Source: an uncultured Myxococcaceae bacterium | GTDB taxonomy: Bacteria; Myxococcota; UBA727; JABDBI01 | Assembly (NCBI GenBank): GCA_964635635.1 | Contig: CAZWPE010000001.1 | Location: forward strand, 639,020-703,019 | Direction: 5' to 3' | DNA length: 64,000 nt | Shown: positions 22,805-56,917 of the stretch, piece by piece | How positions within the stretch are numbered: the first letter of the stretch is position 1 | Layout: each line of letters opens with the position of its first letter | Notes under the pieces: model-generated | Told to the model about the DNA's origin: nothing | What the model saw: only the letters and a program-made list of their open reading frames with translations | The model's database searches: none | Translations under genes and position numbers: made by a program

Positions 22805-23257
22805 TCAACTCATCCACATTAATCCTGCAACAACAATTCCTGCCAGAATATCGTCAAACATGATTCCAAATGGCCCCTTGATTTTGCGGTCTGCCCAGGA
22901 AATTGGCCAGGGTTTTAGGATATCAAACACACGAAACAAAATAAATGCGACAGCAATTGATGTGATGGTTGGCTCACAAAAAAGCGTTGCAAAACCCATG
23001 CCGGCTGCTTCATCAATCACAACTTCTTTGGGGTCATCGGATTCAAAGTGAGAACGCGAAATTGCCCAAATCCCGAGGGCAAATACAGCTAATGACACAA
23101 ATAGTCTGAGCAAAAAAGAAGCGCCACTTAAAACTAGGGGCGCCCATAAAATCGACGAAGCCAGAGACCCCCAAGTACCAGGCGCAAATGAAATGCGCCC
23201 GATGGAGCCCAGCGTACTAAGTTTCTGCGTTACGTCTGAGGAACGCAGGAATGTCAT
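22805..23257 (-). CDS. pgpA: Phosphatidylglycerophosphatase A
   Basis: [49 protein letters not shown] match PgpA motifs. Start set at internal Met (ORF track 23284). Overlaps the ftsZ 3' end. Confidence 0.8.
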
Positions 23258-24671
23258 ATTCGTCTTCTTTTGACTTTGAACCATGCATCGTTAAAGAAGC
23301 ATCTTCTTCGACAGGTGCCAACACAGGAATCTTCATTTCTGTCACAGGCCGAATTCCGGATGGCTGATCCCAACTCTGACGGATATAAGCTGGAATATCC
23401 TTCGATGGCTCCGGATGATGGCTTGGGAACATGCTCGGAACATGTGATGCCATTGGCGCAGCTGCAACAGGTGCAGGCTGTACAAATGGAGCTGGTTCCG
23501 GATGAATTGATGGAGCCATTGAGAATACTGGTTCTGGTGTCGGTGCAGGGTGAATCGAAGGGAATACCGGAGCGACTTCGAACGGAGCTGGAGTTTCAAC
23601 AGGAGCAGCAACTGCCGGAGGTTGATTAAACAATGGCCCTGGTGCCTGCATCGTTTCAATAGCAGCAGGAATTGATTTTTGAATCAGCTCTGGCTCTTTG
23701 AAAGTACTGCCCTTTGCACCCTCAAAACCCGTTGCAATCACGGTAATGGTCACTTCATCTTCGAGTTTTTCATCAACCACATAACCAAAGATGATATTCG
23801 CATCTTCGTGTGCAGCCTTAGTAATGAGCTCAATGGCTGAGTTGACTTCATGCAAGGTCAAAGACTTACCACCAGTCACATTGACCAGTATGCCCATGGC
23901 ACCATCCACAGAAACATCTTCAAGAAGTGGACTTGAAATCGCTTTCTGAGCTGCTTCCACTGCACGATTGTCACCCTTGCCCGAACCAATCCCCATGAGC
24001 GCCATACCTTGATCACTCATCACAGAAATAGCATCTGCAAAGTCTACATTCACAATACCTTGTTGGGTAATGATATCGCTGATTCCCTTCACAGCATTGA
24101 GCAATACTTGGTCAGCCATTTTGAATGCGTCAAGCATTGAGGTGTTAACATCGGCAAGTTGCAACAGACGATTGTTAGGCACAACAATCAAGGTATCAAC
24201 AGCAGCTTTTAAGGCTTCAACACCTGCTTCAGCAGATTTTCGGCGACGGTTACCTTCAAACAAGAAAGGCTTGGTGACAACACCTACGGTCAAAGCACCC
24301 AAACGCTGAGCAACATCTGCAATAATCGGAGCAGCGCCCGTTCCGGTACCACCACCCATACCAGCAGCAATAAACACCATGTCTGCACCGAGCAAAAGCT
24401 CTTCAATACGGTCCATGCTTTCTTTCGCAGCCGTGGCGCCTACTTCAGGCTTAGCGCCAGCTCCAAGACCCTTGGTACACCCCTGGCCAAGTTGAAGTTT
24501 CACGGGAGAGGCACTCATATCAAGCGCCTGACAGTCCGTGTTGGCTACAATAAACTCAACACCATGGATACCATGCTGAATCATATTGTTGACAGCATTT
24601 CCACCGCCACCACCTACGCCAACAACTTTAATTTTAGGACCTCTTTGTTGCATTTCATCAAATTCAATCAT
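23217..24671 (-). CDS. ftsZ: Cell division GTPase FtsZ, with Pro-rich C-terminal linker
   Basis: 484 aa. GGGTGTG tubulin signature, NTD (ANTDCQAL), C-terminal DIPAFLRR peptide. Confidence 0.95.
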
Positions 24672-24691
24672 TTCTCTCTGCCTCCCACCCT

Positions 24692-25924
24692 TTAAATCAT
24701 ATCCTGAATCCAGGCTTCCATTTTCTTTTTAACACGCAAATAAAAACTTTCGCCACTCAATCTCGCATACTTTTTCTCGCGAGCTGCGGCTTGATACAAA
24801 ACCAAACCTACTGCGGTTGCATAGATTGGGCTATTCACCACATCTAACAGGCCCCCAACCCCTCTCGGAGAGCCTCTGCGCACCGGAAGTCCCAACACAT
24901 GTTCTGCCACTTCAACCATTCCGGGAAGCAAAGCAGAACCACCCGTTAAGACCACACCCGAAGCCAACAATTCGCGAAATCCGATTCGATGAATTTCTCG
25001 AGCAACTAATTCGAAAATCTCTTCGACACGTGGCTCTAAAATATCGCCCAAAATTTGCCTGCGCAAAATTCGGTCTGGTCTTCCGCCAATACTAGGTACT
25101 TCGATAACTTCTTCTCTGCCTATCATTTTTGCACTTGCAGAGCCATAAGTTTTTTTAATTTCTTCAGCATTTTCTGCCGGAGTTCGAAGACCAACTGATA
25201 TATCATTTGTCAAATGCTGACCACCAATTGGAATTACCGACGTGTGCTGAATTGAACCATGACAAAACACGGCCACATCAGTTGTTCCGCCACCAATATC
25301 CACCAATGCGACTCCCAACTCTCGCTCATCTTCACTGAGTACTGCATAGGCGGAGGCTAACTGTTCCAAAACAACATCAGTCACTTCAAGACCACAACGC
25401 TCCGCGCATTTAATGATATTTTGAGCTGAGCTAATTGCGCCGGTCACCACATGAATTTTAGCTTCTAGCCTGGAACCAGACATGCCGAGCGGATCCCTAA
25501 TACCACCTTGACCATCCACAATAAATTCTTGAGGAAGCACATGCAAAATTTCTCGGTCTGTCGGGATTGAAAGCGCCTTAGCCGTATCAATCACGCGTTC
25601 GATATCGGCTTTTTTTACCTCGCCATCTTTAATTGCGATGACGGCCTGGCTGTTGATGCCCTGAATATGAGCACCCGCAATACCAGCACAGACACGGTGG
25701 ATTTTACATCCGGCCATCCGCTCAGCTTCTTCTAAAGCTTTCGCGATTGAAGCAACGGTCGACTCAATATTGATAACAACGCCTCTTTTAAGACCCTTCG
25801 AGGGACTGGTACCCACGCCAATAATATTCACACCTTCTGGACATAACTCAGCCACCACCACACCTATCTTGGTAGTTCCGATATCCAATCCGACGATCAA
25901 ATTATCGCGCTTAAACCTCGCCAT
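24692..25924 (-). CDS. ftsA: Cell division protein FtsA (actin-like ATPase)
   Basis: [30 protein letters not shown] motifs. Start at the Met 69 nt inside the ORF-track start (AAGGA SD 5 nt upstream), abutting the ftsQ stop. Confidence 0.9.
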
Positions 25925-25925
25925 A

Positions 25926-26612
25926 TCATCCTTTTTTGAAACGAACCGCAATCTGACCCCGTTTAAGATTGTCGTCAAGGTAGACGAAAGCAAGTTCAGC
26001 TGTTTTTGGACCTAAAGACTTCATTACACTTCTGAGTTTTTCCCACTGAACAGCAGCATTTGTTACTCCAATAATTACTTCAAGACCATTGACGAATAAA
26101 ACCTGCGCCTGCTCATGTGGCATCGTATGGACTTCCATTACCTTTCCACCTGGAAGACCTGCTGAAATATGAGCAGCTAAAAGCTGGGCCTGTTCAAGCC
26201 CTTGAATCAAAGGTAAAGACAACTCTTCTTCACTTTCAGCCGGCTTAAAGGCTACACCACCAGCATCTACCACCCATAATTTTCCCTGTTTAATAAGGCC
26301 CACAGGGATACGTTCAACAATATCAACCTGAAGTGTACTTGGCGGTTCCCTGCGAACACTGGCCGAAGCCACCCAAGGATGTCTTTCAGCCATGATTCGA
26401 ACACGGTTTAGATCAACACCATACAAAGGTTTACCAACCATATCTCGCAGATACACTTGAAGCTCTTCAGGCTTTGCATGAGCACCTGCATGAACACGAA
26501 TCGTCCGAATTGCCAGTGCTGAGCCCTCCGTGAGCCAAACATACAAAACAGGCACCAATACGCCGCCAGCGATTAAAGTAGACACTAATACTATTTGTCT
26601 TCGAATCCCCAA
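25926..26612 (-). CDS. ftsQ: Cell division protein FtsQ/DivIB (POTRA-containing)
   Basis: 228 aa. N-terminal TM then POTRA/FtsQ-like region. Position between murB and ftsA. Confidence 0.7.
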   Translation of the reverse strand: MGIRRQIVLVSTLIAGGVLVPVLYVWLTEGSALAIRTIRVHAGAHAKPEELQVYLRDMVGKPLYGVDLNRVRIMAERHPWVASASVRREPPSTLQVDIVERIPVGLIKQGKLWVVDAGGVAFKPAESEEELSLPLIQGLEQAQLLAAHISAGLPGGKVMEVHTMPHEQAQVLFVNGLEVIIGVTNAAVQWEKLRSVMKSLGPKTAELAFVYLDDNLKRGQIAVRFKKG

Positions 26613-27487
26613 TGCCTTACCTCATATTCCAATTGAATACCAAATTGATCATAAACTTTTTTACGCGCCAATTCACAAATTGCCAACATATCTTTTGAAC
26701 TTGCCTTATTGTAATTCAAAAAAAAGTTAGCATGTAGTTCAGAAATTCTGGCTCCACCTATTTGGGTTCCCTTAAGGCCACATGCCTCAATTAAGCGGCC
26801 TGCATAATCCTCTGGAGGATTTTTAAACATCGAGCCTGCCGAACGGAACTTAGGTTGAGTAGCTTTACGTTTTTTAGCGAGCTCCTGTGCTTCATGCAAA
26901 AGTTCTAATTTACGCTCAGGCTTTGGCTCTGGGTAATGCAAATAGGCTCTGCACAAAACAGCATTCGCAGGAAAATGGGTATTGCGGTACGAAAATCCCA
27001 TATCATCGTGACTGAGTTCAAGAGCGCCATTTTCTGTCATGGCCTCTACGCGAAGGACGACCTCGCCCAGCTCACCTTGACGAGTTCCAGCGTTCATTTT
27101 GAGTGCACCACCGACAGAGCCAGGAACGCCGCACCAACCGAGTGCTCGCTCCCAACCTAATTCCAATGCATGGCGGGTTAATTTGGGAAAAGAATAGGCA
27201 GCGCCCACAGAGATATCACGGCCATCTGGTGACATATGAATGCGCGTGAAGTCACCCGTCAAATGCACAACAACGCCGCGAACTCCAGAATCACTTACCA
27301 GCAAATTACTACCACCACCCAAGAAATAAACAGGCATTTTGGCAGATTTTGCCTCAGAAAGTACTTGATATAAATCAGTCTCGTTTTTAACCAGAGCCAA
27401 ATACTCCGCCGGCCCACCCATGTGGAGGGTTGTGTAGGGAGCCAAGGGCTCCTCTCTCAAAACCTCAACGCCTTCAAACACTTTCAA
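26591..27487 (-). CDS. murB: UDP-N-acetylenolpyruvoylglucosamine reductase
   Basis: 298 aa. FAD-binding YFLGGGSNLL motif and MurB C-terminal domain. Confidence 0.9.
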   Translation of the reverse strand: MKVFEGVEVLREEPLAPYTTLHMGGPAEYLALVKNETDLYQVLSEAKSAKMPVYFLGGGSNLLVSDSGVRGVVVHLTGDFTRIHMSPDGRDISVGAAYSFPKLTRHALELGWERALGWCGVPGSVGGALKMNAGTRQGELGEVVLRVEAMTENGALELSHDDMGFSYRNTHFPANAVLCRAYLHYPEPKPERKLELLHEAQELAKKRKATQPKFRSAGSMFKNPPEDYAGRLIEACGLKGTQIGGARISELHANFFLNYNKASSKDMLAICELARKKVYDQFGIQLEYEVRHWGFEDK

Positions 27488-42183: not shown

Positions 42184-43299
42184 ATGGAACGGGCTCAGAA
42201 ACAGGCCATCTTAAGAGATTTAAATAAAAAAATGGTTTTTCTTGCAGGTCCGCGCCAGGCAGGAAAGACCACTTTGGCCAAGGAAATCGCCAAAGAGTTT
42301 GGTTCGTCTGTATATTTAAACTACGATAGTTTGACCGACCGGAAGATTATTTTAAAAGAGGAGTGGCTGCCTTCTGTTGAATTTTTGATTTTGGATGAGA
42401 TTCATAAAATGCCCAAATGGAAGAATTATTTAAAGGGCATCTATGACACCAAACCTGCTCATCAGAAGATTTTAGTGACTGGCAGTGCTCGTTTGGAAGT
42501 TTTTAGAAAAGTTGGAGATTCTTTAGCAGGTCGTTATTATTTGCATCGATTGATGCCGCTTTCACCCGCAGAATGTGAAAAAATGGGGGTTGCTTACACC
42601 CTTGACCATTTTATGGAACGCGGTGGATTCCCAGAACCGTTTTTTGCTGAAAATGCCGTAGATGCTGGTCGTTGGCGGATGCAATATATCGACAGCTTGC
42701 TTCGAGAAGATGTGCTCAATTTTGACAACATTCAAAATCTTAATTCTATACGTTTGGTGTTTGATTTATTGCGCGAACGCGTCGGCTCGCCGGTCTCTTA
42801 TAGTTCAATCGCTGAGGATTCTCAGTTGGCGCCCAATACCGTTAAAAAATACATTCAAATTTTAGAAGCACTTTATGTCGTGTTTCGAGTGACACCCTTC
42901 TCAAAAAATATTGCTCGTAGCTTACTGAAAGAACCTAAGATTTATTTTTTTGATACGGGATTGGTCAAAGGCGATCTTGGAGCAAAGTTTGAAAATTTGA
43001 TGGCAACTTGTTTGATAAAGCATGTTTACGAAAAAATAGACTATCAGGCAGAGCCGTATTCTTTGCACTATCTCAACACCAAAGATCGAAAAGAAGTCGA
43101 TTTTGCATTGATCAATGACAATCGAGTCGAGCAGATTATCGAGGCTAAATACTCAGATGGCTCAGTGACTAATGCGCTTCGATATTTTCATGAAAAGCAT
43201 CGACTAACGGCCACTCAAGTTGTCAAAGAACTTAAACATGAGCGGACAGACAAGGGTATTCATGTGTTGACAGGAATCAATATGCTCAAGGCGCTATAG
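42184..43299 (+). CDS. AAA+ ATPase of the COG1373 family (AAA_14 N-domain plus DUF4143 C-domain, a predicted PD-(D/E)xK-fold nuclease)
   Basis: 371 aa. Walker A LAGPRQAGKTTL, Walker B LILDEIH. C-terminal KEVDFAL...IIEAKYSD D...ExK-like motif. Confidence 0.7.
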   Translation: MERAQKQAILRDLNKKMVFLAGPRQAGKTTLAKEIAKEFGSSVYLNYDSLTDRKIILKEEWLPSVEFLILDEIHKMPKWKNYLKGIYDTKPAHQKILVTGSARLEVFRKVGDSLAGRYYLHRLMPLSPAECEKMGVAYTLDHFMERGGFPEPFFAENAVDAGRWRMQYIDSLLREDVLNFDNIQNLNSIRLVFDLLRERVGSPVSYSSIAEDSQLAPNTVKKYIQILEALYVVFRVTPFSKNIARSLLKEPKIYFFDTGLVKGDLGAKFENLMATCLIKHVYEKIDYQAEPYSLHYLNTKDRKEVDFALINDNRVEQIIEAKYSDGSVTNALRYFHEKHRLTATQVVKELKHERTDKGIHVLTGINMLKAL

Positions 43300-43705: not shown

Positions 43706-44362
43706 ATGTCTCAACTCTCTCTTTTTGATACCCATCCTTCTACACCCGCTCTGTCATGGACCCAAATGCCGTTTTTGGTCGTTGACACTGAAACAACTGG
43801 TCTTGACCCACAACAAAATCGAATCATTGAAATCGCCTGGGTACTTTTTGAAAACGGTCAAGTAACTCATTCCCAGGCATGTCTGTGCAGCATCAGTGAA
43901 CCATTGCCACCAGAAATTACTCGTATTACCGGGATTGATGCCAGCATGCTTGAGGGTCAACCTCAATTTTCAGAGCATATATCTGATTTCATAGCAGCTT
44001 GTTCAAAGGTGTCTTATTTAGTCGCCTACAATGTTCCCTTTGACCGTGCCTTTATAAGCTCTGAATTCACACGGGCTGGCAAAGAAATGCCCTCTATGCC
44101 CTGGTTTGATCCATGCATCTATATTCGCGAAATTGACAAGTTTAAGAAAGGTAAAAAGCTGAGCGAAGCAGCTGCTCGCTGGGGTGTTGAGCTTGATGGC
44201 GCACACCGAGCTTTGGCAGACGCAACCGCAGCAGGTAAACTTTTTCTAAAGCTTATGCCCTATCTCAAAGCTAACAATCTTGAAGAGTTAGCCAAATTGG
44301 AAAACAGCTGGCGCATAGAGCAAGAAAGGCAGTATCAGGCTTATAAAGCTCGGACCCGCTAG
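43706..44362 (+). CDS. DEDDh 3'-5' exonuclease (DnaQ / DNA pol III epsilon-like)
   Basis: 218 aa. Exo I FLVVDTETTGLDP, Exo II AYNVPFDRAF, Exo III HRALADATA. Confidence 0.8.
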   Translation: MSQLSLFDTHPSTPALSWTQMPFLVVDTETTGLDPQQNRIIEIAWVLFENGQVTHSQACLCSISEPLPPEITRITGIDASMLEGQPQFSEHISDFIAACSKVSYLVAYNVPFDRAFISSEFTRAGKEMPSMPWFDPCIYIREIDKFKKGKKLSEAAARWGVELDGAHRALADATAAGKLFLKLMPYLKANNLEELAKLENSWRIEQERQYQAYKARTR

Positions 44363-45312
44363 CGCGTGCCTTGCAGCATCCATCCCGTTAAGTGGTATAG
44401 CATCCGTGCCCCCACATTGCCGTCCCACTCCCCGCAGCCAACCTCGCAAAGGTCGAATCCAATAATTTTTCGACCCGAACGTACAATGCCCGCAATCAAG
44501 TAATATGCTTGCTGAAAATCAAGCCCTCCTGGCACGGGTGTTCCAGTTCCAGGACAAAATCTTGGGTCTAAAGCATCAATATCGAACGATACCCATACAT
44601 TTTGCGGAAGATGAACCAAAATATCATGAACCATTGAGGACCACGACTTCCCAGCGAATTGGTTATTCATCAGTTCAAAATCTGTGAACACATGCATTCG
44701 GGACCCTTGTGCCTGGGCAAACTCAAGCTCTTCCTCGCAGAAATCTCGAATACCCACCTGAACCAACTTGCTCACAGCAGGGACCCGTTCCAAAACGTTT
44801 CGCATGATAGACGCGTGAGACCACGTATAACCCTCATAGGCATTGCGAGTATCAGCATGTGCATCCAAATGCAGAATACCAAACTCACTCTGCTCGCCCA
44901 TTGCTTTGATAGCGCCAAATGGACTCGAATGGTCCCCTCCAACTACGCCAATCATCTTCCTTGCATGATACAAACGACGAGCTTGTTCATAAACGTACTT
45001 ATTTACTTCCTCACTTGCAGCATTGATATCACTTGCAAGATTAAGGCTGCGAATATTCTGCGGAATAGGCAACATATGAAATCCGGCTTCATAAATACGC
45101 CCTAATTCAGGATGATATAAGTCGACTTGCTTACTAGCACGCAAAATAGCCTCGGGTCCTTCCGCTGTTCCCTTTCCATAAGAGGTTGTGCGTTCCCAAG
45201 GAACCGGAATATAAACCACCCGAGCATCAGCTTCAGTCTCTAGCAGACCAAAAACACCAGAATCTTCAGATGCGGCGCCATTGGGATCAAATTTGTTTTC
45301 CATATCAGACAC
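44359..45312 (-). CDS. Arginase/agmatinase/formiminoglutamase (ureohydrolase) family protein
   Basis: 317 aa. GGDHS, DAHADT, SFDIDALDP metal-binding motifs. Stop overlaps the exonuclease stop; start overlaps the dnaE stop. Confidence 0.8.
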   Translation of the reverse strand: MSDMENKFDPNGAASEDSGVFGLLETEADARVVYIPVPWERTTSYGKGTAEGPEAILRASKQVDLYHPELGRIYEAGFHMLPIPQNIRSLNLASDINAASEEVNKYVYEQARRLYHARKMIGVVGGDHSSPFGAIKAMGEQSEFGILHLDAHADTRNAYEGYTWSHASIMRNVLERVPAVSKLVQVGIRDFCEEELEFAQAQGSRMHVFTDFELMNNQFAGKSWSSMVHDILVHLPQNVWVSFDIDALDPRFCPGTGTPVPGGLDFQQAYYLIAGIVRSGRKIIGFDLCEVGCGEWDGNVGARMLYHLTGWMLQGTR

Positions 45313-48300
45313 TCGTTCTTACAGCTTTTTTAACGCCATTCAAATTCTCAAGCGCTGCCAAGAAATTATCCGACGCATCAATACGAATATGCTCCCCACA
45401 AATCATGTAGGTTTTGAATCCTTCAGCATGCTCGAAAATAAGTCTCATAGGTTTCTGACCACGGTGCAGTTCGCACACAGCTTGAATATCACGAAGTAGC
45501 TCAGTTGACTCAGCGTCAAGCGTTATATCAACAAAACGTGTTTTTTCTTCCTGAGCCTTGGCCAGCATGGTGACGCTTTCAAGACGAATTTTAGGCATAG
45601 CCACATTGCCTTCATCGTCGATATCATCAATTAAAACACGGCCTTTAATCAGAAGTGGCTCTTTAGTCTTTAAGAGCGATTCGTATTCGGCATAGGCTTT
45701 ATTAAATGCCAAAACTTCAACACGCCCAAAATTGTCTTCGAGATTCACCACAGCCCAACGGCCTTCACCACTCTTGAGCATACGTTCTTTCAAATCGGCA
45801 ACAACGCCCATGATTTGAACAGATTCCAAGTGCCTAGCCTGTGTTAGCTGGGCTGTCGCCAAAACCCCTAAACGTTTGGCTTCGGACTGATAACGATCCA
45901 ACGGATGACCAGATAAATAAAAACCTAAGGTTTCTCGCTCGAATCCAAGTTTTTCTTTTTCGGGCCATTCTTTGCAAGGCTCATAATGCTCAGGGCTCGC
46001 TGACTCCAAAGTACCAAACAAAGAAGTCTGACCGCGTTCCCGATCTTTCTGTGTCTTTTGCGCAGATGTCATTGCAGACTCAAGCGCAAGGTGGAGCTGC
46101 TTTCTTGGGCGTTCAAAACCATCAAATCCACCCGACTTAATCAAAGCTTCGAGTACTTTACGGTTTACTTTTTGAAGAGGCACACGTTCGCAGAACTCAA
46201 AAAGACTCTTGAAATTACCTGTCTGTTTTCTGGTCTCGAGAATAATTTCGAGCGCTGCATCTCCAAGACCTTTAATGGCCTCAAGACCAAATCGAATACG
46301 CTGGTTATCAACGGTGAATTTCTTGGAAGAAGCATTGATATCCGGCGGCAAGACTTCAATGCCTGAGGTCCTTGCTTCACCAATATACTTCACAACGTCT
46401 TCTGTTGAACCTGATGAAGTTGTGAGCAGTGCCGCCATAAACTCAACTGGGTAATAGTGCTTCAGATAGGCTGTCTGATAGGTAATCATCGCATACGCAG
46501 CCGCGTGACTCTTGTTAAAACCATACCCAGCAAACTTCTCAATCGAATCAAAAATCGAACCGGCTTGGTCAGGATCAACGCCATTATCTTGAGAGCCCTT
46601 CACAAATTCAGCGCGCTGCTTTTGCATCTCCTCAAATTTTTTCTTACCCATTGCCCGGCGAAGCAAATCTGCTTTACCCAGTGAGTAACCAGCTAAAACC
46701 TGAGCAGCCAATAAAACTTGCTCTTGATAGACGAAAGTTCCATAGGTTGGCTTCAAAATCGCTTCGAGTGACGGATGCGGGTATACAACCTTCTTACGGC
46801 CATGTTTACGATCCACGAAGTCATCAACCATTCCTGACTGCATCGGGCCTGGCCGATAAAGAGCGCCCGCAGCAATAATATCTTCAAAACAGTCAGGTTT
46901 CAAACGACGGCATAAGTCTTGGAATCCACCAGATTCCACCTGGAATACCCCGAGCGTATCGCCCGATGCAATCAGCTCATAAACACCTTTCGATTCAGGT
47001 GCATTCGGCGATAGCAATTCAATTTGGATTGGATCTTTGCCTTCAGCCTTCAGACGCTCATTCACCAGGTCTTCAGCATTAGCGATAACGTCTAGAGTTT
47101 TCAGGCCCAAGAAGTCGAACTTCACCAGCCCAGCATATTCAACCTTATCTTTGTCAAACTGCGTGATGAGTTCACCATGCTGACCAGCAAACAATGGCAC
47201 GTATTCAACAAGCGGCTTATCGCTGATCACAACACCGGCAGCGTGCATACCCGCTTGTCGATACAAGCCTTCAAGTACGCGTGCTGTATCCAAAATACGT
47301 TGATACACAGGATCTTGTGCGGCTTTTTCTTTAAGCTTAGGCGCGAACTCCAATGCTTCGTCTAAGTCTGGCTTCTGGCCTTCTATTAACAGAGGCATCG
47401 GCTTGGTGAGTTCATTAATTTCTGAGAATGGAATCCCTAGAGTTCTGGCAACGTCTTTGATCGCACTCTTGGGGTTCAGACCTGAGTAAGTTGCGATCTG
47501 CCCAACGTGGTCACGGCCGTAACGCTCTGTGACATATTGAATCACTTCACCGCGGCGCTCCTGCATGAAGTCAACGTCAAAGTCAGGCATTGAAACACGT
47601 TCCGGATTCAAGAAACGCTCAAAAAGCAAGTTATACGGAATCGGGTCAATATCCGTAATGCGCAGCGCATAAGCCACCAAACTGCCTGCACCGGAACCTC
47701 GACCGGGACCTACACGAATACGGCTGTCCTTAGCCCAGTTGATAAAGTCCTGAACGATCAAGAAATAGCCTGAAAAACCCATTCGGATAATCACGCCCAG
47801 CTCCAACGCAAGTCTGGCCTGGTACTGGTCGCGGTCAACCGGATAGGTCATTTCTTTAAAACGCCTCTCCAGACCCTGCTGCGCCAATGCGTACAAATAA
47901 TCCGTCTCATCTTTATAAGCGTCCGGGCAGTTAAAGCTCGGCAAAAAAGTCTGCCCTAGTTTGAGATCGACTTGACAGCGAGCCCCTACTTCACAGGCGG
48001 TTTCAAAAGCTTTGGCGTAGTCATCTTTGAGCAAGTCCCACATTTCTTGCCCAGAGCGAATATAAAACGCATCTGTCTCATGCTTATGCAGGGTTGGGTC
48101 ATCCCAAGCTTTTTGTTGCCGAATGGCCATCAAAATATTTTGGGCATCGTGCTCTTCGCGATTCACATAGTGACAATCATTGGTTGCAATGAGTCTCAGG
48201 CCTTCGCTGCGGGCCATTTCAGCTAAATGTGCATTGACCTGATTTTGGATGTCAATGCCATTGGGCTGAACTTCTAAAAAGAAATGATTCTCTCCAAAAA

Positions 48301-48790
48301 TACGCTTAAACTCACGAATCGTATCACGAGCGCCATCTAAATCTCCCTTGGCGCATTTTTTACCCACTTCACCGCCCAAACAGGCAGTGGAGGCAATAAT
48401 CCCTTCGCGATGCTCGTATAATAAATCTTTATCGACACGAGGGTAGAAGTACTTTCCATCACAGAAAGCCTTTGAAGAAAGCTTCCGTAGATTTTCATAG
48501 CCAATATTATTTTCAGCTAAAAGCACCAAGTGGAAATTCTCACGAATCTTATCGGTATGCTTCGCTTTGCCAGTCACATAGGCTTCCATTCCTAAAATGG
48601 GCTTGATCCCTGCTGCTTTAGCTTGAGAATAGAAATCAAGGGCTCCGAACATATTGCCATGATCGGTCACAGCAACGGATTTCATCCCAAGCGCACTGAC
48701 TTTTTTCACTAAATCTTTGACACGAATTGCCCCATCCAGAAATGAATACTGGGTATGCAGATGTAAGTGGGCAAAATCGTTGGCAGACAT
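45305..48790 (-). CDS. dnaE: DNA polymerase III alpha subunit
   Basis: 1161 aa. PHP domain HLHLHTQYSFLDGA, polymerase core and OB fold. Confidence 0.95.
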   Translation of the reverse strand: MSANDFAHLHLHTQYSFLDGAIRVKDLVKKVSALGMKSVAVTDHGNMFGALDFYSQAKAAGIKPILGMEAYVTGKAKHTDKIRENFHLVLLAENNIGYENLRKLSSKAFCDGKYFYPRVDKDLLYEHREGIIASTACLGGEVGKKCAKGDLDGARDTIREFKRIFGENHFFLEVQPNGIDIQNQVNAHLAEMARSEGLRLIATNDCHYVNREEHDAQNILMAIRQQKAWDDPTLHKHETDAFYIRSGQEMWDLLKDDYAKAFETACEVGARCQVDLKLGQTFLPSFNCPDAYKDETDYLYALAQQGLERRFKEMTYPVDRDQYQARLALELGVIIRMGFSGYFLIVQDFINWAKDSRIRVGPGRGSGAGSLVAYALRITDIDPIPYNLLFERFLNPERVSMPDFDVDFMQERRGEVIQYVTERYGRDHVGQIATYSGLNPKSAIKDVARTLGIPFSEINELTKPMPLLIEGQKPDLDEALEFAPKLKEKAAQDPVYQRILDTARVLEGLYRQAGMHAAGVVISDKPLVEYVPLFAGQHGELITQFDKDKVEYAGLVKFDFLGLKTLDVIANAEDLVNERLKAEGKDPIQIELLSPNAPESKGVYELIASGDTLGVFQVESGGFQDLCRRLKPDCFEDIIAAGALYRPGPMQSGMVDDFVDRKHGRKKVVYPHPSLEAILKPTYGTFVYQEQVLLAAQVLAGYSLGKADLLRRAMGKKKFEEMQKQRAEFVKGSQDNGVDPDQAGSIFDSIEKFAGYGFNKSHAAAYAMITYQTAYLKHYYPVEFMAALLTTSSGSTEDVVKYIGEARTSGIEVLPPDINASSKKFTVDNQRIRFGLEAIKGLGDAALEIILETRKQTGNFKSLFEFCERVPLQKVNRKVLEALIKSGGFDGFERPRKQLHLALESAMTSAQKTQKDRERGQTSLFGTLESASPEHYEPCKEWPEKEKLGFERETLGFYLSGHPLDRYQSEAKRLGVLATAQLTQARHLESVQIMGVVADLKERMLKSGEGRWAVVNLEDNFGRVEVLAFNKAYAEYESLLKTKEPLLIKGRVLIDDIDDEGNVAMPKIRLESVTMLAKAQEEKTRFVDITLDAESTELLRDIQAVCELHRGQKPMRLIFEHAEGFKTYMICGEHIRIDASDNFLAALENLNGVKKAVRTSV

Positions 48791-49140: not shown

Positions 49141-49230
49141 GGAGAGATGGCCGAGCGGTTTAAGGCACTGGACTTGAAATCCAGCGTAGGGGTAACTCTA
49201 CCGTGAGTTCGAATCTCACTCTCTCCGCCA
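49141..49230 (+). tRNA. tRNA-Ser (anticodon UGA), class II with long variable arm
   Basis: Acceptor stem ggagaga/tctctcc + G + CCA. Anticodon loop cTTGAaa. TPsiC stem gagTTCGAATCtc. Extra arm gcgtaggggtaactctacc. Confidence 0.9.
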
Positions 49231-49303
49231 TCCGACGCCTTTTCGCCTTTTTCTATTCAGAGGATTGTAGCATAATAGATTCCTAACATATGCGTGTCAG
49301 ACG

Positions 49304-51148
49304 CTAATCCATGTCTTGGTTTGGGGGGATAAGTGAATCTGACTCATTACAGTATGAATAACCCCATGAAAGGCCTTGTTTGAACATGTGCTCGATTGCA
49401 AAGGGTTGTGACATCAGGCCCTTAGACCGATCATTTGATTGAGGGATATTGAGGTGATGTTTGAACGCGATTTTAATACCGAGTTCGAGCTGTTCTTTGA
49501 TTTTGGCTTCTGCCACACCGATCATTCGCATCATCAATTTCAAAATTTTCGTTTTAGTTTCAAGAGGAGTTTTAGAATGACGGAAGATAAAATTGAGTGC
49601 TTTCGCCTTGAGAGATGCGTGATTGTCAAGCTCACTCAGTTTATCAACCGCTTGTTCGGGTTCAATTTCATATCCTTCATCGAGCAAGGTTTTCAAAGCC
49701 TCAAGCCATGCTTGATCATCAGGAAGCCGATGATAAGCACTTGCCACATGACCAAAAATAACAGCCGAAGCAAAATAGTTTTTGCTCATCAAGATCGGCC
49801 GCACGGACTGAGGGCTATTTTGTTTAGAGTGCCAAAGTAATGAATGACCCAATGCCCGGTAAGCCATGTTCTCACTTTGAGTCATGTCTCCAAACTCCCG
49901 CATGGCACGAAAATGGTTGTTTTTGGGTGAAGCAAAAAATACCCTGAGGCTGCTTAAAAATCTATGGAGCTGAGAACCCAAGGTGTAGACTGGGTCAATT
50001 AGCGCAATCTGCTTAAGATGGGTTAAATGGTCTAAGAGCATCTTTTCATCAACCAAATCTAAAGCAAAGTGGGGACTTGTCTTTTCAATTCTGGCAAATG
50101 GAAAGTGAATGTAAGCATGTTGCAGAAAATCGCGTTCACCACTGAGCGGGGTTGCGTGTTCTCTAATTTTTAGCCTGTGTTGCTCCTGACTCTCCATGAT
50201 GCTTTCAACAGTTTGAGCTCCTGGGGCACCCGGACTAAGTTCTGGTCGCTTGCTTTTTGAAAACAGGCTTGCAAATTGGTCAAGTTCCTTGGGGTATGTT
50301 TCTGAGCCCGTTGTTTCAAATTCTTTGACGTTCCGCGTGTTAAATACTTGGATGTCTATTGCACTCAAACTAGAGGGATCAACATAGGCCGGCAGCTGAA
50401 AATCTGATGGCACATAACTCGTTCGATAAGCTTCAAGTTGAAGTGCCCTCATGTTTTTAAACAATTCACTGAATGACAAAGAAGGTGGTTTCGCTTTCAA
50501 TAGAGCTGACTTGTAAATACTATGTATAGTTGCTGAATTTAAAGCCATTTTATCGTTTCCGGTCGATACAACTGTGATTTCAGCGCCACTCTTTTTTGAA
50601 ATTTCTTCTAAAGCGAGGCGATTTTTTTCACGAAGAAAATTAGCGCCATAACAGGAGTTTAAAAAGAACACGATACGATTCATGATCGATGCATACCGTT
50701 CAATCGTTTGAAAGATCTCACTTTCAAAAGTTTTACTCCCTGATAGTTTCCAGCCTTCTGCTTCTAAAACACCGTGAGCTGTAACCACCATCACGAGCAA
50801 AGCAGAGTCTTCTGACGAAAGAGAGGCTTTCACATGACTGAACGGCACATACGTACCAGGGATATAGTCAGTGAGGGCATTCTCAGAAACGAAGTCAAAT
50901 ACATCAAAAAAGTTTTCTGGTTCTTTTACGCCCTCAACGTCTCTCAGGTCTGCAATGGTTTGAAAGCGATCGCCATATATGTCCCGAAGTGTTTTTTTAA
51001 ACAAAAGGCCAACATTCAGACGTTCTCCAATATCTCCATCGGTAAAAGAGCTCGAATGCAGGAATACTTTTTCAGCAGAAAAAGCATTGACCGACAAAAA
51101 GAGCAGAGCAAAAAACGTTTTTAGTTTATTTTTCATATATTTTATCAA
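49304..51148 (-). CDS. Secreted protein with N-terminal caspase-like (His-Gly ... Cys dyad) peptidase-like domain
   Basis: 614 aa. Signal peptide. VMVVTAHGVLEAEG followed by FFLNSCYGANF resembles the caspase/CHAT-type His...Cys arrangement. Probable start at the internal ATG (MKNKLK). Confidence 0.4.
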   Translation of the reverse strand: MIKYMKNKLKTFFALLFLSVNAFSAEKVFLHSSSFTDGDIGERLNVGLLFKKTLRDIYGDRFQTIADLRDVEGVKEPENFFDVFDFVSENALTDYIPGTYVPFSHVKASLSSEDSALLVMVVTAHGVLEAEGWKLSGSKTFESEIFQTIERYASIMNRIVFFLNSCYGANFLREKNRLALEEISKKSGAEITVVSTGNDKMALNSATIHSIYKSALLKAKPPSLSFSELFKNMRALQLEAYRTSYVPSDFQLPAYVDPSSLSAIDIQVFNTRNVKEFETTGSETYPKELDQFASLFSKSKRPELSPGAPGAQTVESIMESQEQHRLKIREHATPLSGERDFLQHAYIHFPFARIEKTSPHFALDLVDEKMLLDHLTHLKQIALIDPVYTLGSQLHRFLSSLRVFFASPKNNHFRAMREFGDMTQSENMAYRALGHSLLWHSKQNSPQSVRPILMSKNYFASAVIFGHVASAYHRLPDDQAWLEALKTLLDEGYEIEPEQAVDKLSELDNHASLKAKALNFIFRHSKTPLETKTKILKLMMRMIGVAEAKIKEQLELGIKIAFKHHLNIPQSNDRSKGLMSQPFAIEHMFKQGLSWGYSYCNESDSLIPPNQDMD

Positions 51149-51200
51149 TCAAAATTTAAAGATAAAAAATGATTGCCAGTAAATCTTAAATGTTTTCCTG

Positions 51201-51312
51201 CATCTGTCAATCCTGTTCTTTTTAAGCCGAATACCTTTGCAATCTGGCTACAAGCTTGCATTACATCAGTTCACTAGTGGTAATGGTAGTCAGACGCCTT
51301 TTCGCCTTTTCC
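51201..51312. repeat. Copy 1 of a ~100-bp intergenic repeat family ending in tandem motif (cagacgccttttcgccttttcc = RC GGAAAAGGCGAAAAGGCGTCTG)
   Basis: ~80% identical over ~100 bp to 63040..63146. Core agtggtaatggtagtcagacgccttttcgcctttt is shared with 53098..53166 (inverted). The 18-mer gacgccttttcgcctttt also occurs just 3' of tRNA-Ser (49232..49249). Confidence 0.5.
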
Positions 51313-51324
51313 GCTTCGATAGCC

Positions 51325-52785
51325 TTATCGAGTTCGTCGAGTGGAGTTAGGCTTTTTTTCTTCCGGGTAATCTTGGCATCCTCTAACAGCATTTAAATTA
51401 GCACCCTTGTGAGCACCCAGAGCCGTAATCAATCGACCCTCCACGCATCTCAAAACCTTGTTCACGTGGTCCTTTGGATTACCCTCATTTTCATCTTCAT
51501 CTTCATTTAAAAAGTCAGATAATCCAAGCGAGAACGGATCTATGCCTGTAACTAAGAGTGAATGACATGTAACTCCAGATTCTAACATCCAACTATGAAG
51601 GCGACTATCTTCGTTTTTATTGGCACACTCAAGATGCTCTACGTTGCGTATTATTAATACTCTATTTCCTTTGGGGCCAGAACTGACGAGCCCGATATAG
51701 TATCCTTTTAACCCGTGAGCTGTAAAAAGATCCTTAAAATAAGCAGAGAGTCCCGTTACTTCTTTCTCAGAAGGGCAATGATCAAATGTAATAATTGGAA
51801 TTTTACGAGGCAGTGGTGTTTTAGTGTAGACATAAATCTGTCCCGGTAAGATTACTCCTTTCTTCTCTGGATTTGGTTTATTTGTTTCTTCATCCCAAAG
51901 ATAAATGGCTCTAGGTTCAATGTCTCCTATTGTTTGCCCAGAAGAGGATGTTGGCGTTTGAAAAGCATAGCATTTTTCAGCCGGCCTAACTTGTTTAAGT
52001 GGTGTTTCTGAAGGATTAGTGGATTGTTGAAGATGGGTATGGTTAGCTTCAGTATGAGATGCTGCGTCAATAATTTCGCATGCTTTCACCGTGGCTTGAG
52101 ATGCTGCAGCTGCAGCTGTAGCTTGAGATCCTCCGGTAGAACTTATCGTTTTTTTTGAGAAGGTATATTCATCATCATCTTCGAAATTTAACTGACACGA
52201 AACTGTAGATTCAGATTCTTCAGGCTGAACACTTGTAGGCTTAGTCTTCTTAGGTGAAGATGAAGGTGAACCTGTTGTTTGTTTCTGACCAGGGACAGTT
52301 TGAGAAGCTTTCTTTTCAAAGTCTATCTGATTGGATTCAGAACTTTCTGCAATAAGCTTGGATGCTTCCTTAATTTCAGCAGGTGACTCTAACAAAGCAT
52401 TTTGATCAAACTCACCCAACTCATCTTGCTCTTGTTCAAGTTCTTCAATCTGTTCCTTGTTCTTAAGCTGCCCCTGTTGCTTAAGCTCTTCTATTTGCTT
52501 TTTAATTTTCTTTAATTTCTGTCCAACTGTTTTAGGTTCATCTTTAGATGTTTTTTTTTCAAGTGCCTCAGTTGGATCATTTTTTTCTAAAGCTTTTACA
52601 GCAAATAGAGATAGCCACGGTTGCTTTTTAAAAGTTTGAAATAAACTTTGGATAGGTGCTGCGATAGGATTCAAGATTTGAATTTCAGCAAAAACAGGCA
52701 ATGATGCTAACATTAAACAAAAAACAATTCTGAAAAACATGAAAACTCCGGAAAACAAACAATTGGCTATAAGCAGATCAAACAA
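51325..52785 (-). CDS. Secreted coiled-coil / low-complexity hypothetical protein
   Basis: 486 aa. Signal peptide (MFFRIVFCLMLASLPVFA), Lys/Glu-rich coiled-coil, Ser/Thr-rich linker, Cys/His-containing C-terminal domain with no clear family. Confidence 0.4.
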   Translation of the reverse strand: MFDLLIANCLFSGVFMFFRIVFCLMLASLPVFAEIQILNPIAAPIQSLFQTFKKQPWLSLFAVKALEKNDPTEALEKKTSKDEPKTVGQKLKKIKKQIEELKQQGQLKNKEQIEELEQEQDELGEFDQNALLESPAEIKEASKLIAESSESNQIDFEKKASQTVPGQKQTTGSPSSSPKKTKPTSVQPEESESTVSCQLNFEDDDEYTFSKKTISSTGGSQATAAAAASQATVKACEIIDAASHTEANHTHLQQSTNPSETPLKQVRPAEKCYAFQTPTSSSGQTIGDIEPRAIYLWDEETNKPNPEKKGVILPGQIYVYTKTPLPRKIPIITFDHCPSEKEVTGLSAYFKDLFTAHGLKGYYIGLVSSGPKGNRVLIIRNVEHLECANKNEDSRLHSWMLESGVTCHSLLVTGIDPFSLGLSDFLNEDEDENEGNPKDHVNKVLRCVEGRLITALGAHKGANLNAVRGCQDYPEEKKPNSTRRTR

Positions 52786-53097
52786 TAATCAAATCAATTG
52801 CTTTAATTGCTTTGTTTTGAAAATAATTTCAATTGTTTTTTGTTTGTTTGCTTGTTTTTAAACAATTGTTTTTATGGTAAAACAGGCGAATAGGCATCAG
52901 GCACGCACATTTTGGCAACTGGCATCTAATGGTTTCATAAGATTTGTGTGGGTGCCTCGTATCTGACGCCTATTGGCCTTTGAAAGCTGTTGGAGCAGGG
53001 CATTTGTCAGAAAGACAGCCCTACTGGGACAGATTGGTATCTGAAATAAACCTTCGCTTGCAGCTTTAATCTTTTGCAGAAGCTGCTGCTGCTGCTG

Positions 53098-53166
53098 AGA
53101 AAAGGGAAAAGGCGTCAGGCTACCATTACCACTACTTCCAGAAAGCCAATTTGTGGCTTCTGATCA
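53098..53166. repeat. Copy 3 (opposite orientation) of the intergenic repeat family, upstream of the DEAD-box helicase
   Basis: gaaaagggaaaaggcgtcaggctaccattaccactacttcc = RC of agtggtaatggtagcctgacgccttttcccttttc. Adjacent (GCT)5 run. Confidence 0.4.
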
Positions 53167-54710: not shown

Positions 54711-55142
54711 CTATCCGTTCGTAATTTGAAACCCCAAGGCACTTGCAAATGTCACCCCAGCAATCCCAAGAAGGACACGAATGGGTTTTTTAAGATTCAG
54801 TGTTTTGCAATAATCATACACTTCTAGTCCCTTCCAAATCGCTATTAGTAGCCATGCAGGAGTCGTCACAATAAAAAACTCCTTCAGAGGTGGAACTTTT
54901 TTGGCTGGCGGTGGGCTATATTGGCATTTCTCTTGCTTCCACTGACATTGGACAGCTGCGGACCTACACGACTGCTCGCTCTTCAGATTACTACATGCTG
55001 CGTGCAGACGACGCACATAATCCTCATACTCTGCAACAGCCACAGCTTGTTGCCACATGAATGCAACTGGATCATGTCCATTTGCCTGAGACCACTGTGC
55101 AATCAGTGCAGTAAGCAAAAATGATGTTATTAATTTTCTCAT
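54711..55142 (-). CDS. Small secreted Cys-rich hypothetical protein
   Basis: Start taken at MRKLITSFLLTALIAQWSQANG (signal peptide), 4-nt overlap with the upstream AAA gene stop. Several Cys and a C-terminal hydrophobic segment. Confidence 0.35.
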   Translation of the reverse strand: MRKLITSFLLTALIAQWSQANGHDPVAFMWQQAVAVAEYEDYVRRLHAACSNLKSEQSCRSAAVQCQWKQEKCQYSPPPAKKVPPLKEFFIVTTPAWLLIAIWKGLEVYDYCKTLNLKKPIRVLLGIAGVTFASALGFQITNG

Positions 55143-56917
55143 AATGACTCGCAAGACGGCTGCTGAGGCTGCCCGCATTTTCGGGATTCATCGTGTGACT
55201 GTGGGCTGTTTGCTTTGTCAGCGGGCTCCGCTTTAGGCGCTTTAGACGCTTCCGATAGAGGCTCTCGACGTTCGAAGCTTCCAAGGATTCTCTTCTTAAG
55301 AAGCTCATCCGTGATGCGAGCTTTGCCCGAAATTCTCTCTTGTTCCTGCAAAGCCTCTACTTGGCCTAAGAACTCGCTTATCACAGCTTGAATAGTCCTA
55401 GCGCCTGGGTTTCGCTTCTGATCTTCATCAAGCATGAAGGGCAAATATTTCATGGCTACCTTTTGAATTTCAAGAATATCATTCTCGCTCAAAAACTCTG
55501 AGCGTTCGCAAAGTGATTGTTTGAGAGACCCCAAAGCTGCAGCTTCTTTCTCTGCCCTCGTGAGCTGGGAAAGAGAGATTTGAGAAATTCGGCTTAACAA
55601 AGCCGTATTGGTTAATGGATAATTGCTTGCAAACAAAAATGTCGACCGTGAAGTATCAATATCAATCCCGAGACCTATATGTTTTAAGTTCATTGATGAT
55701 GGATCTGTAATTTTTTTGAATTCTGCTTGAATTTGCTGGCGCTTCACAAAGTTAAGGTCAAAACCGGTAGTTTGCCCCATCGAATCACTGAGATATTCTC
55801 CAGCTTCATCAAAAAAGATAACAGGATTTTTATAACCAGTGGTTGTATAGCACGCAGCTATTTTTCCTAACACCTCATCGTCAGACATCTTAATTTCATC
55901 ATCTCCCATGTGCTGGGGCCCCAGAAGCTGTGATGGTTCAAGAGCAGCCATGCTAATTGTGCAAACTGGCACCCCAAGAGCCTCACCTAATTGCTTTACA
56001 AAGGTCGTTTTTCCGGTTCCCGGTGGGCCATAAAGATATGCCTGTACACGACTTCCCCGACTGGCAATGGAATTATCTCTAATTGCTGAAACTAAGAGTT
56101 CCAAGGCAGGTTGCTGATCTTCTGGGTAGCGACTAATTAAATCATTCACACGGTGGTCCAGAATCCGCTTAATCTCTTTGTCTCCTTCTTTATTTCGGTG
56201 AGAAATATTAAGAGTTTTTGTTGGAAATGCGAGGTATACCTGCTGCTTTCTTCTTAAAAACCTAAATGCTGCATCGCCCTGCTTCTGGGCCAATAGACTC
56301 ATAATACTACGGTCAAGCGACTGGATTCTCTGACGAATATCTTCAGGCAATTCTTTGATTTTAGATTCTGATGTTTGAACGAGTTTATCCTGAACGTAGT
56401 TTAAACCCTCATTGAGATCCATTTTGGATTTTCTAACCGACTCAACAACATTGTAAGCAAAATTTGTAAATGCAGTTCCTAAAGCAAGAAGTGCCGAACT
56501 TGATGTGGCAGAAGGTGAATCAGATTTAGGGGATTCAGGCTCGGCCGTTGTTGCAGCCTCTGGCTTTGCAGGAATCAAATATTTTGAAGCCATGACAGTA
56601 ATGGCCGTAAGACTACCAGCAACCAGTAGCTTGACGCTTTCCCATCCCAAATCCGTTGCAATTTTATAAACATCTCGACCACCGGTACAATAGCGCTGTT
56701 GAAGTTGTTCAAACTCCAGCTTTCTGGATTGAAGCGTATTCAAATTGGCCAAATTTTCTTTTTTCCATATCTGAAAACGTTCAAGGTCATTATCGCTCAA
56801 GGTTGTTTTAAGGTTAATGGATGAATGCTTTGAGCAATCGCTTGTATCCCCTGCGGCAACAGAAAAACTGGAGCCCAAAAGAGCAGCCATAAAAGATATA
56901 AAATTTAGATAAAACAT
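55139..56917 (-). CDS. Membrane-anchored AAA family ATPase (classic-clade AAA; Bcs1-like topology)
   Basis: 592 aa. N-terminal signal/TM segments. Walker A YLYGPPGTGKTTFV, Walker B VIFFDEAGEY. Confidence 0.6.
   Translation of the reverse strand: MFYLNFISFMAALLGSSFSVAAGDTSDCSKHSSINLKTTLSDNDLERFQIWKKENLANLNTLQSRKLEFEQLQQRYCTGGRDVYKIATDLGWESVKLLVAGSLTAITVMASKYLIPAKPEAATTAEPESPKSDSPSATSSSALLALGTAFTNFAYNVVESVRKSKMDLNEGLNYVQDKLVQTSESKIKELPEDIRQRIQSLDRSIMSLLAQKQGDAAFRFLRRKQQVYLAFPTKTLNISHRNKEGDKEIKRILDHRVNDLISRYPEDQQPALELLVSAIRDNSIASRGSRVQAYLYGPPGTGKTTFVKQLGEALGVPVCTISMAALEPSQLLGPQHMGDDEIKMSDDEVLGKIAACYTTTGYKNPVIFFDEAGEYLSDSMGQTTGFDLNFVKRQQIQAEFKKITDPSSMNLKHIGLGIDIDTSRSTFLFASNYPLTNTALLSRISQISLSQLTRAEKEAAALGSLKQSLCERSEFLSENDILEIQKVAMKYLPFMLDEDQKRNPGARTIQAVISEFLGQVEALQEQERISGKARITDELLKKRILGSFERREPLSEASKAPKAEPADKANSPQSHDESRKCGQPQQPSCESL

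Follow-up and report, generated by a model that had tools for sequence, protein, structure and literature searches.

We analysed a window of 64,000 nucleotides (nt) from contig CAZWPE010000001.1 of an uncultured Myxococcaceae bacterium, apparently an uncultivated relative of Myxococcota with a low content of guanine plus cytosine (GC, ~45%). The analysis centres on two neighbouring genes, here named p1 and p2, which lie beside a tRNA-Ser gene and among copies of a short dispersed repeat. The tRNA-Ser gene (anticodon UGA; 49141-49230, plus strand; 63 bits against the Rfam tRNA model) is the sole tRNA gene identified in the window by ARAGORN. On one side of it is dnaE (45305-48790, minus strand) and on the other are p1 (49304-51148) and p2 (51325-52785), both encoded on the minus strand and convergent with tRNA-Ser. 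The stop codon of p1 is 74 nt from the 3′ end of the tRNA gene, and the spacer between p2 and p1 is 176 nt long. A first-pass annotation of the same DNA had described two co-oriented signal-peptide proteins next to tRNA-Ser(UGA). Its coordinates are exact, and the description needs a single correction, namely, that the genes run towards the tRNA gene on the minus strand.

The p1 and p2 genes and their products

p1 encodes 614 amino acids (aa) if translated from a TTG codon and 610 aa from the ATG at 51136, four codons further on, which is where an identical database protein (P0001) begins. p2 encodes 486 aa from TTG, its likely start being the ATG at 52740 (M16), which is preceded by GGAG 5 nt in the 5′ direction. 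Both are real genes and not chance open reading frames (ORFs), as follows from their lengths, the higher GC content of first compared with third codon positions (GC1 and GC3, respectively) and host-like codon usage. At the given composition, a stop-free run would arise by chance with a probability of ~1e-14 for 486 codons and ~1e-18 for 614 codons. The codon log-likelihood is 0.056 for p1 and 0.079 for p2, compared with a window mean of 0.059 +/- 0.029, so that neither gene stands out from the other 47 ORFs. The GC content of p1 (0.416) is 1.3 standard deviations (SD) under the mean, and that of p2 (0.387) is 2.3 SD under it, with GC3 of p2 (0.271) being the lowest among the 49 ORFs. A promoter-like site upstream of p1 (51183-51210, minus strand), composed of TTGACA, a 16-nt spacer and TAAGAT, is a consensus match only (10 of 12 positions). 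Upstream of p2 there is an AT-rich region (52786-53096) containing inverted repeats I5, I11, I12 and I24; several CAATTG-centred palindromes in this region may be operator sites.

The p1 protein is predicted to have three parts, an N-terminal domain of alternating strands and helices (residues 25 to ~275, encoded by 50324-51076, minus strand), a linker, and an all-helical C-terminal domain (residues 354-606, 49331-50089, minus strand). Two cysteines are present in mature p1, Cys166 and Cys600, the latter conserved. In p2, residues 76-130 are rich in K, E and Q, heptad-like and coiled-coil-like, residues 131-285 are rich in Ser, Thr, Ala and Pro (16% S, 12% T), and residues 286-486 constitute a C-terminal globular part with five Cys and seven His. 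This composition agrees with the first-pass view of p2 as a coiled-coil/Ser-Thr-rich protein having a Cys/His-containing C-terminal domain. The two proteins were also considered as possible paralogues; BLASTP does not link them, and the common codons of TAHG amount to a 13-nt coincidence (repeat D10).

Sec-type signal peptides can be read at the N-termini of both proteins. In p1 the signal peptide spans residues 5-24, counted from M5 (MKNKLKTFFALLFLSVNAFS followed by AEK; 51077-51136, minus strand), with the hydrophobic peak at residues 12-23, and in p2 it spans residues 16-33, from M16 (MFFRIVFCLMLASLPVFA followed by EIQ). Judging by these peptides, p1 and p2 are exported from the cytoplasm via the Sec pathway. 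Since the window carries genes for Omp85 and TamB, the organism has an outer membrane; together with the signal peptides, this places the predicted location of the p1 and p2 products in the periplasm or beyond.

Both proteins are lineage-specific near-orphans. In a word-indexed search of 5.8 billion protein clusters p1 matched itself alone, whereas neither the complete p2 nor its C-terminal domain had a match. A full HMMER scan of 1.84 billion representatives with p1 retrieved, apart from p1 itself, a single protein, P0007 (phmmer E=1.1e-40), which aligns with residues 366-606 of the C-terminal helical domain (BLASTP, 36% identity over 249 aa). The helical domain is thus conserved, at 36-37% identity, in one other environmental organism. 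P0007 comes from a 1,084-nt metagenomic contig of the Joint Genome Institute (L083; metagenome 3300046304, contig Ga0456281_021134), and because its reading frame is still open where the contig ends, it is a fragment of a longer homologue. Searches of Pfam, NCBIfam, PHROGs and PADLOC with whole p1 and p2 and with their separate domains returned nothing, as did PDB sequence searches with p1, p2 and a profile of p1 and P0007 at E<=10, a tblastn search of plasmids with p1 and a metagenome scan with the p1/P0007 alignment. Downstream of P0007 (917-1084 of L083) is the start of an ORF that by eye resembles the N-terminus of a membrane transporter, and no copy of the window's repeat follows the P0007 stop codon in that contig.

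The His/Cys motif of p1

The N-terminal domain of p1 contains the motif LLVMVVTAH125G ... RIVFFLNSC166YG, with 41 residues separating His125 (codon 50774-50776) from Cys166 (codon 50651-50653). Each of the two residues ends a hydrophobic strand, these strands being the two most hydrophobic strand-like segments of mature p1. The motif had been spotted in the first-pass annotation as VVTAHG...FFLNSCYG and compared to the catalytic residues of clan CD peptidases. Members of this clan have a six-stranded sheet of the order 2-1-3-4-5-6, in which the loops that follow strands 3 and 4 bear the His/Cys dyad, with Gly beside the His (PMC4357240). The dyad residues are 144/186 in caspase-7, 133/179 in PmC11 and 91/140 in MARTX-CPD, which makes them 42 to 49 residues apart (PMC4357240). 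With the motif definition taken from PMC12445089, p1 displays the motif-level features of the clan as T-A-H125-G ... N-S-C166-Y-G, with Ser replacing Ala. We compared p1 with a set including C14 caspases/metacaspases/orthocaspases, C13 legumain, C11 clostripain, C25 gingipain, C80 CPD and CHAT domains. As in these families, His comes before Cys and is followed by Gly, a small residue precedes Cys, each of these elements follows a hydrophobic strand run, and the spacing is similar, 41 residues against 42-49. Further similarities are the predicted α/β alternation around and after the dyad, and secretion, which is found in many bacterial members. In contrast, p1 matches no clan CD profile, has Ser-Cys instead of Ala-Cys, has a helix predicted right after Cys, lacks a confident fold and is fused to an otherwise unmatched helical domain of 250 residues.

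How specific the motif is can be judged from a strict pattern consisting of four hydrophobic residues and H-G, a gap of 25-60, and three to four hydrophobic residues followed by A, S or Q and then C. The pattern is rarer than chance, being found in 5e-5 of p1 shuffles. Among ~1,730 ORFs from 80 Myxococcota loci it has, besides p1, one match, a true Peptidase_C14 protein (locus L022, Pfam E=1.7e-9), which is the only C14 ORF in the fetched loci. This absence of false positives argues against a coincidental His/Cys pattern, and so do the placement of His125 and Cys166 at the ends of the two most hydrophobic segments and the fact that Cys166 is one of just two cysteines in a protein predicted to be exported. 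If the pattern were nevertheless coincidental, p1 and p2 would be non-enzymatic envelope or surface proteins (structural, adhesive or binding), the usual ORFans of environmental genomes, an explanation that we consider rather improbable though one to be taken seriously. It gains from the observation that a looser version of the pattern also matches two unrelated ComEC-type ORFs, and from the first-pass procedure, in which ~50 proteins were scanned for any suggestive motif. It further gains from homology and fold searches, every one of which was negative.

Several results weigh against a clan CD peptidase. The strict pattern was composed after p1 had been seen, so its specificity is flattered. 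Pfam yields no clan CD match for full-length p1, for its 254-aa N-terminal domain or for a 110-aa core, even at E<=10, and NCBIfam yields no match for p1 at the same threshold. BLASTP and Smith-Waterman comparisons of the N-terminal domain with the L022 C14 protein, caspase-3 and legumain give scores at the level of shuffled sequences (p = 0.08 to 0.7), again as expected of a coincidence. P0007, the sole homologue of p1, ends before the N-terminal domain carrying His125 and Cys166. AlphaFold2 models of full-length p1 and of the N-terminal domain alone have a predicted local distance difference test (pLDDT) score of 38 each and are too poor to use; strands expected for β1 and β2 are not predicted in them, and both put a helix straight after Cys166, which is nucleophile-elbow-like rather than typical of caspase loop L4. 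At low confidence, both models have a strand-helix-strand-helix-strand arrangement at residues 116-195. Starting from the His strand, the predicted order is strand(H)-helix-strand(C)-helix-strand-helix-helix-strand, which fits the β3 to β6 half of the caspase fold. Overall, no profile, pairwise or structural comparison puts p1 in clan CD. These negatives differ in value. The genuine C14 protein of L022, used as a positive control, is recognized by Pfam with the above E-value, and the Pfam/NCBIfam negative for p1 does carry weight. The single-sequence negatives carry little, because a phmmer search of PDB retrieves no caspase even with this true C14 protein as the query.

The helix that begins at Cys166 directly after a strand in both pLDDT-38 models would also suit a different enzyme. 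The N-terminal domain might adopt another three-layer α/β fold with a Cys nucleophile, either glutamine-amidotransferase/DJ-1-like or α/β-hydrolase-like, in which case Cys166 would sit at the elbow and His125 would be non-catalytic. The p1 segment SCYGANFL resembles the G-x-C-x-G-x nucleophile elbow of such enzymes, which we count in favour of this possibility, and the fold matches of the models are Rossmann- or flavodoxin-like. However, these matches are generic and, coming from models with pLDDT of 38, have no weight. Moreover, Pfam does not match p1 to any such family, the residue two positions before Cys166 is Asn, not a small one, and the downstream sequence offers no obvious His-x-Glu or similar partner. 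We regard this assignment as very doubtful.

To return to the clan CD-type reading, the first-pass comparison holds as far as the His-Gly...Ser-Cys arrangement and the spacing of 41 are concerned, whereas membership of the clan is not borne out by family profiles, PDB search or pairwise alignments. The His/Cys motif of p1 is a real lead, not proof, and a clan CD-type peptidase is a reasonable lead that, by sequence, we hold to be appreciably less probable than the contrary. In the explanation favoured below, the N-terminal α/β domain would be a thiol hydrolase, with a caspase-like (clan CD-type) endopeptidase as the foremost candidate under the same reservation, two consecutive parallel strands ending in His125 and Cys166, respectively. 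The role of the helical domain would be to target or regulate the N-terminal one. If p1 is a peptidase, it would represent a new family and not a member of an existing one. As for p2, it may be an extended coiled-coil/disordered stalk with a Cys/His-rich globular head that is presented either in the cell envelope or extracellularly.

The tRNA-Ser flank and its dispersed repeat

The tandem AAAAGGCG repeat was confirmed at 49236-49251 and 51295-51310, where AAAAGGCGAAAAGGCG is present exactly at both sites (0.14 expected by chance), and turned out to be the end of a larger dispersed element. The repeat family comprises five copies (A to E) of ~30-100 nt, all within 49.2-63.2 kb; the first 49 kb of the window contain none. 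The minus-strand sequence of the core is GAAAAGGCGTC-NGR-CTACCATTACCACTA, which on the other strand corresponds to tandem TGGTAR hexamers and then GACGCCTTTTC. Copy A (49231-49258, minus strand), consisting of the GAAAAGGCGAAAAGGCGTC half only, abuts the 3′ end of the tRNA gene, 46-73 nt past the p1 stop codon. Its similarity to copy B (D3) extends over 28 nt (86% identical), with 18 nt identical. Copy B (51218-51317, minus strand; core 51275-51317) is located in the p2-p1 spacer and has an extension (51218-51274) common to copy E only. Copy C (53097-53134, plus strand) is inverted relative to copy B (I1, I4; blastn-short E=6.7e-7) and lies 105 nt upstream of a DEAD-box helicase gene. Copy D (62912-62967) is a self-complementary pair of half-copies forming a predicted hairpin (fold z-score -4.5), and copy E (63057-63155, minus strand), the longest one, is ~75-80% identical to B over ~100 nt and has a minus-strand hairpin z-score of -2.9. 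Thus, p1 is bracketed by direct copies A and B, 2,059 nt apart, and p2 with its AT-rich upstream region is bracketed by B and C as 35-nt inverted copies (89% complementary), in keeping with the first-pass observation that repeats flank both genes. Contigs assembled from short reads of this organism (run SRR16481186) break off at copies A and C or close to them, which is what a multi-copy repeat would cause.

The repeat matches no Rfam family, and no copy of it was found in the close relative described below, in metagenome and viral collections or in the other 82 fetched loci. Several identities were considered and dropped. Integron attC and dif-like sites disagree with the sequences: the attC ends RYYYAAC...GTTRRRY are absent, and the locus differs from an integron cassette array in the inverted orientation of copy C and in the predicted promoter-like site of p1. 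A small gene in the extension shared by B and E is contradicted by a 1-nt indel breaking the frame, a known RNA family by the negative Rfam result, and for conserved RNA structure no covariation is visible between the two long copies. The closest resemblance is to repetitive extragenic palindromic (REP) sequences and bacterial interspersed mosaic elements (BIMEs), enterobacterial repetitive intergenic consensus (ERIC) sequences and miniature inverted-repeat transposable elements (MITEs), which are likewise short (30-100 nt), multi-copy, intergenic, in part hairpin-forming and present in both orientations. Location at gene boundaries and apparent gene truncation are shared as well; in contrast to these elements, the repeat lacks Rfam similarity, and its copies lack terminal inverted repeats of their own and target-site duplications. 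The truncation concerns a 171-aa ORF (62571-63086), the N-terminal third of which consists of copies D and E of the repeat. Towards the C-terminus, this ORF looks by eye like the tail of an α/β hydrolase, although Pfam finds nothing. This ORF may be a gene truncated at the repeat.

The species representatives that we searched do not include the window's own genome; their nearest DnaE sequences, from uncultured Myxococcota, are 57-65% identical. The single close relative compared, GCA_964484075.1 (locus L082), extends only 3.9 kb past tRNA-Ser. It is 84% identical at the nucleotide level across dnaE and has the same tRNA-Ser (3942-4031 of L082). Blastn homology between the two ends at 49242, within 12 nt of the tRNA-Ser 3′ end, the tRNA gene being the last common feature. 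Past it, L082 has genes for Abhydrolase_6, MFS, DUF192 and FtsW proteins, none of which are in the window. Since different genes occupy this flank in L082, it represents a variable site, and the lack of synteny that the first-pass annotation had allowed for is real in this one relative. The window has murG-murC-murB-ftsQ-ftsA-ftsZ at 23-30 kb with no ftsW there, and in L082 ftsW is only 4 kb from tRNA-Ser. Judging by this difference in ftsW, the tRNA flank is probably the breakpoint of a larger rearrangement or of a long insertion. With one relative covering 3.9 kb past the tRNA gene, gain here is not distinguishable from loss or rearrangement there, which tells against a firm reading of the flank.

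Further observations concern other parts of the window. In the cluster at 23217-32559 the place of ftsW upstream of murG is taken by a low-GC (0.38) ORF of 773 aa with a weak Pkinase match (4e-7). Two genes are absent from the otherwise syntenic L082, an AAA_14/DUF4143 ATPase at 42184-43299 (PADLOC candidate defence family PDC-S01, 2e-57) and an arginase-family gene at 44359-45312, inserted between RNase T and dnaE.

The first-pass annotation had also proposed a repeat-bounded, horizontally acquired effector locus, that is, a classical island integrated at tRNA-Ser, carrying secreted effectors and having the repeats as attachment sites. In line with such an island, synteny with a relative as close as L082 stops within 12 nt of the tRNA 3′ end, the L082 protein set and nearly everything else lack p1 and p2, GC3 of p2 is the lowest in the window, repeat copy A abuts tRNA-Ser, and other genes of the window look accessory (Fic, a kinase-like ORF and a dual-specificity phosphatase). 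With integrase-mediated islands linked to tRNA-Ser, tRNA-Leu or tRNA-Phe, pathogenicity islands among them, the locus does share a loss of synteny on the 3′ side of the tRNA gene and, next to it, strain-specific genes whose products are exported. However, among the Pfam matches of every ORF of >=150 aa in 49-64 kb there is no integrase, recombinase or transposase. The final 24 nt of tRNA-Ser occur once in the window, even with <=3 mismatches allowed, and thus the direct repeat of the tRNA 3′ end typical of such islands is not seen, although the boundary could lie past 64 kb. A second boundary is not reached within the 14.8 kb beyond the tRNA gene, a stretch that holds ordinary, housekeeping-type genes (DEAD-box helicase, SDR, methyltransferase, ABC ATPase). 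In codon usage, p1 and p2 do not differ from host genes and are not foreign, only p2 being AT-shifted. Finally, no donor is detectable, and the repeat is also found 10-14 kb away, with copies in mixed orientation. Belonging to a dispersed element, the repeats do not represent boundaries of an island. The data thus fail to support a classical island acquired by horizontal transfer, and we consider it unlikely.

Several other genes of the window deserve mention. They encode a protein of 651 aa that includes a dual-specificity phosphatase domain (7954-9909; DSPc, 5e-14) and a Fic-domain protein (61451-62530; 4e-18), which together with patatin and the kinase-like ORF hint at interaction with, or manipulation of, other cells. 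A 592-aa protein (54711-56917) combines a signal-peptide-like N-terminus with an AAA+ ATPase domain (PF00004, 1.6e-11; weak Lon-like match), and its ORF overlaps by 40 nt with a 155-aa ORF that has a signal peptide too. Exported or membrane-anchored AAA+ proteins are unusual.

Interpretation and implications

Taken together, the explanation that we favour, and to which we give about an even chance, is that p1 and p2 are lineage-specific, fast-evolving exported proteins encoded in a variable segment at the 3′ end of tRNA-Ser, at a breakpoint marked by repeats. The variable segment would begin exactly at the 3′ end of tRNA-Ser(UGA), with the ~30-100 nt repeat scattered through it. The repeats are plausible recombination substrates and would mark recombination breakpoints rather than the sites at which an integrase-borne island attaches. 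An exchange between A and B would remove p1, whereas one between B and C would invert p2. A more ambitious version joins both strands of the argument, such that p1 founds a profile-invisible family of Sec-exported proteins with a caspase fold and a new helical targeting domain, and, at the same time, the repeats move or invert single-gene units without a linked recombinase. We consider it improbable that both parts hold jointly.

Loci of this type, in which ORFans occupy a plastic part of the genome of an environmental organism, are common. If the motif is coincidental, the pair is a routine one of ORFans at a rearrangement breakpoint, and the locus is a caution that adjacency to a tRNA gene plus repeats does not equal an island. 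Beyond that, it offers two modest leads, a possible sequence-orphan family of clan CD and a new dispersed repeat around single genes. Should p1 prove to have a peptidase with a caspase fold as its N-terminal domain, the clan would gain such a family, and there would be an entry point to the exported proteins of a low-GC, uncultivated relative of myxobacteria. A repeat family bracketing single genes, in turn, could explain the reshuffling of exported repertoires. Should the joint reading be true, the locus would exemplify cassette-like diversification of the exported-protein repertoire in an uncultivated low-GC lineage of Myxococcota.

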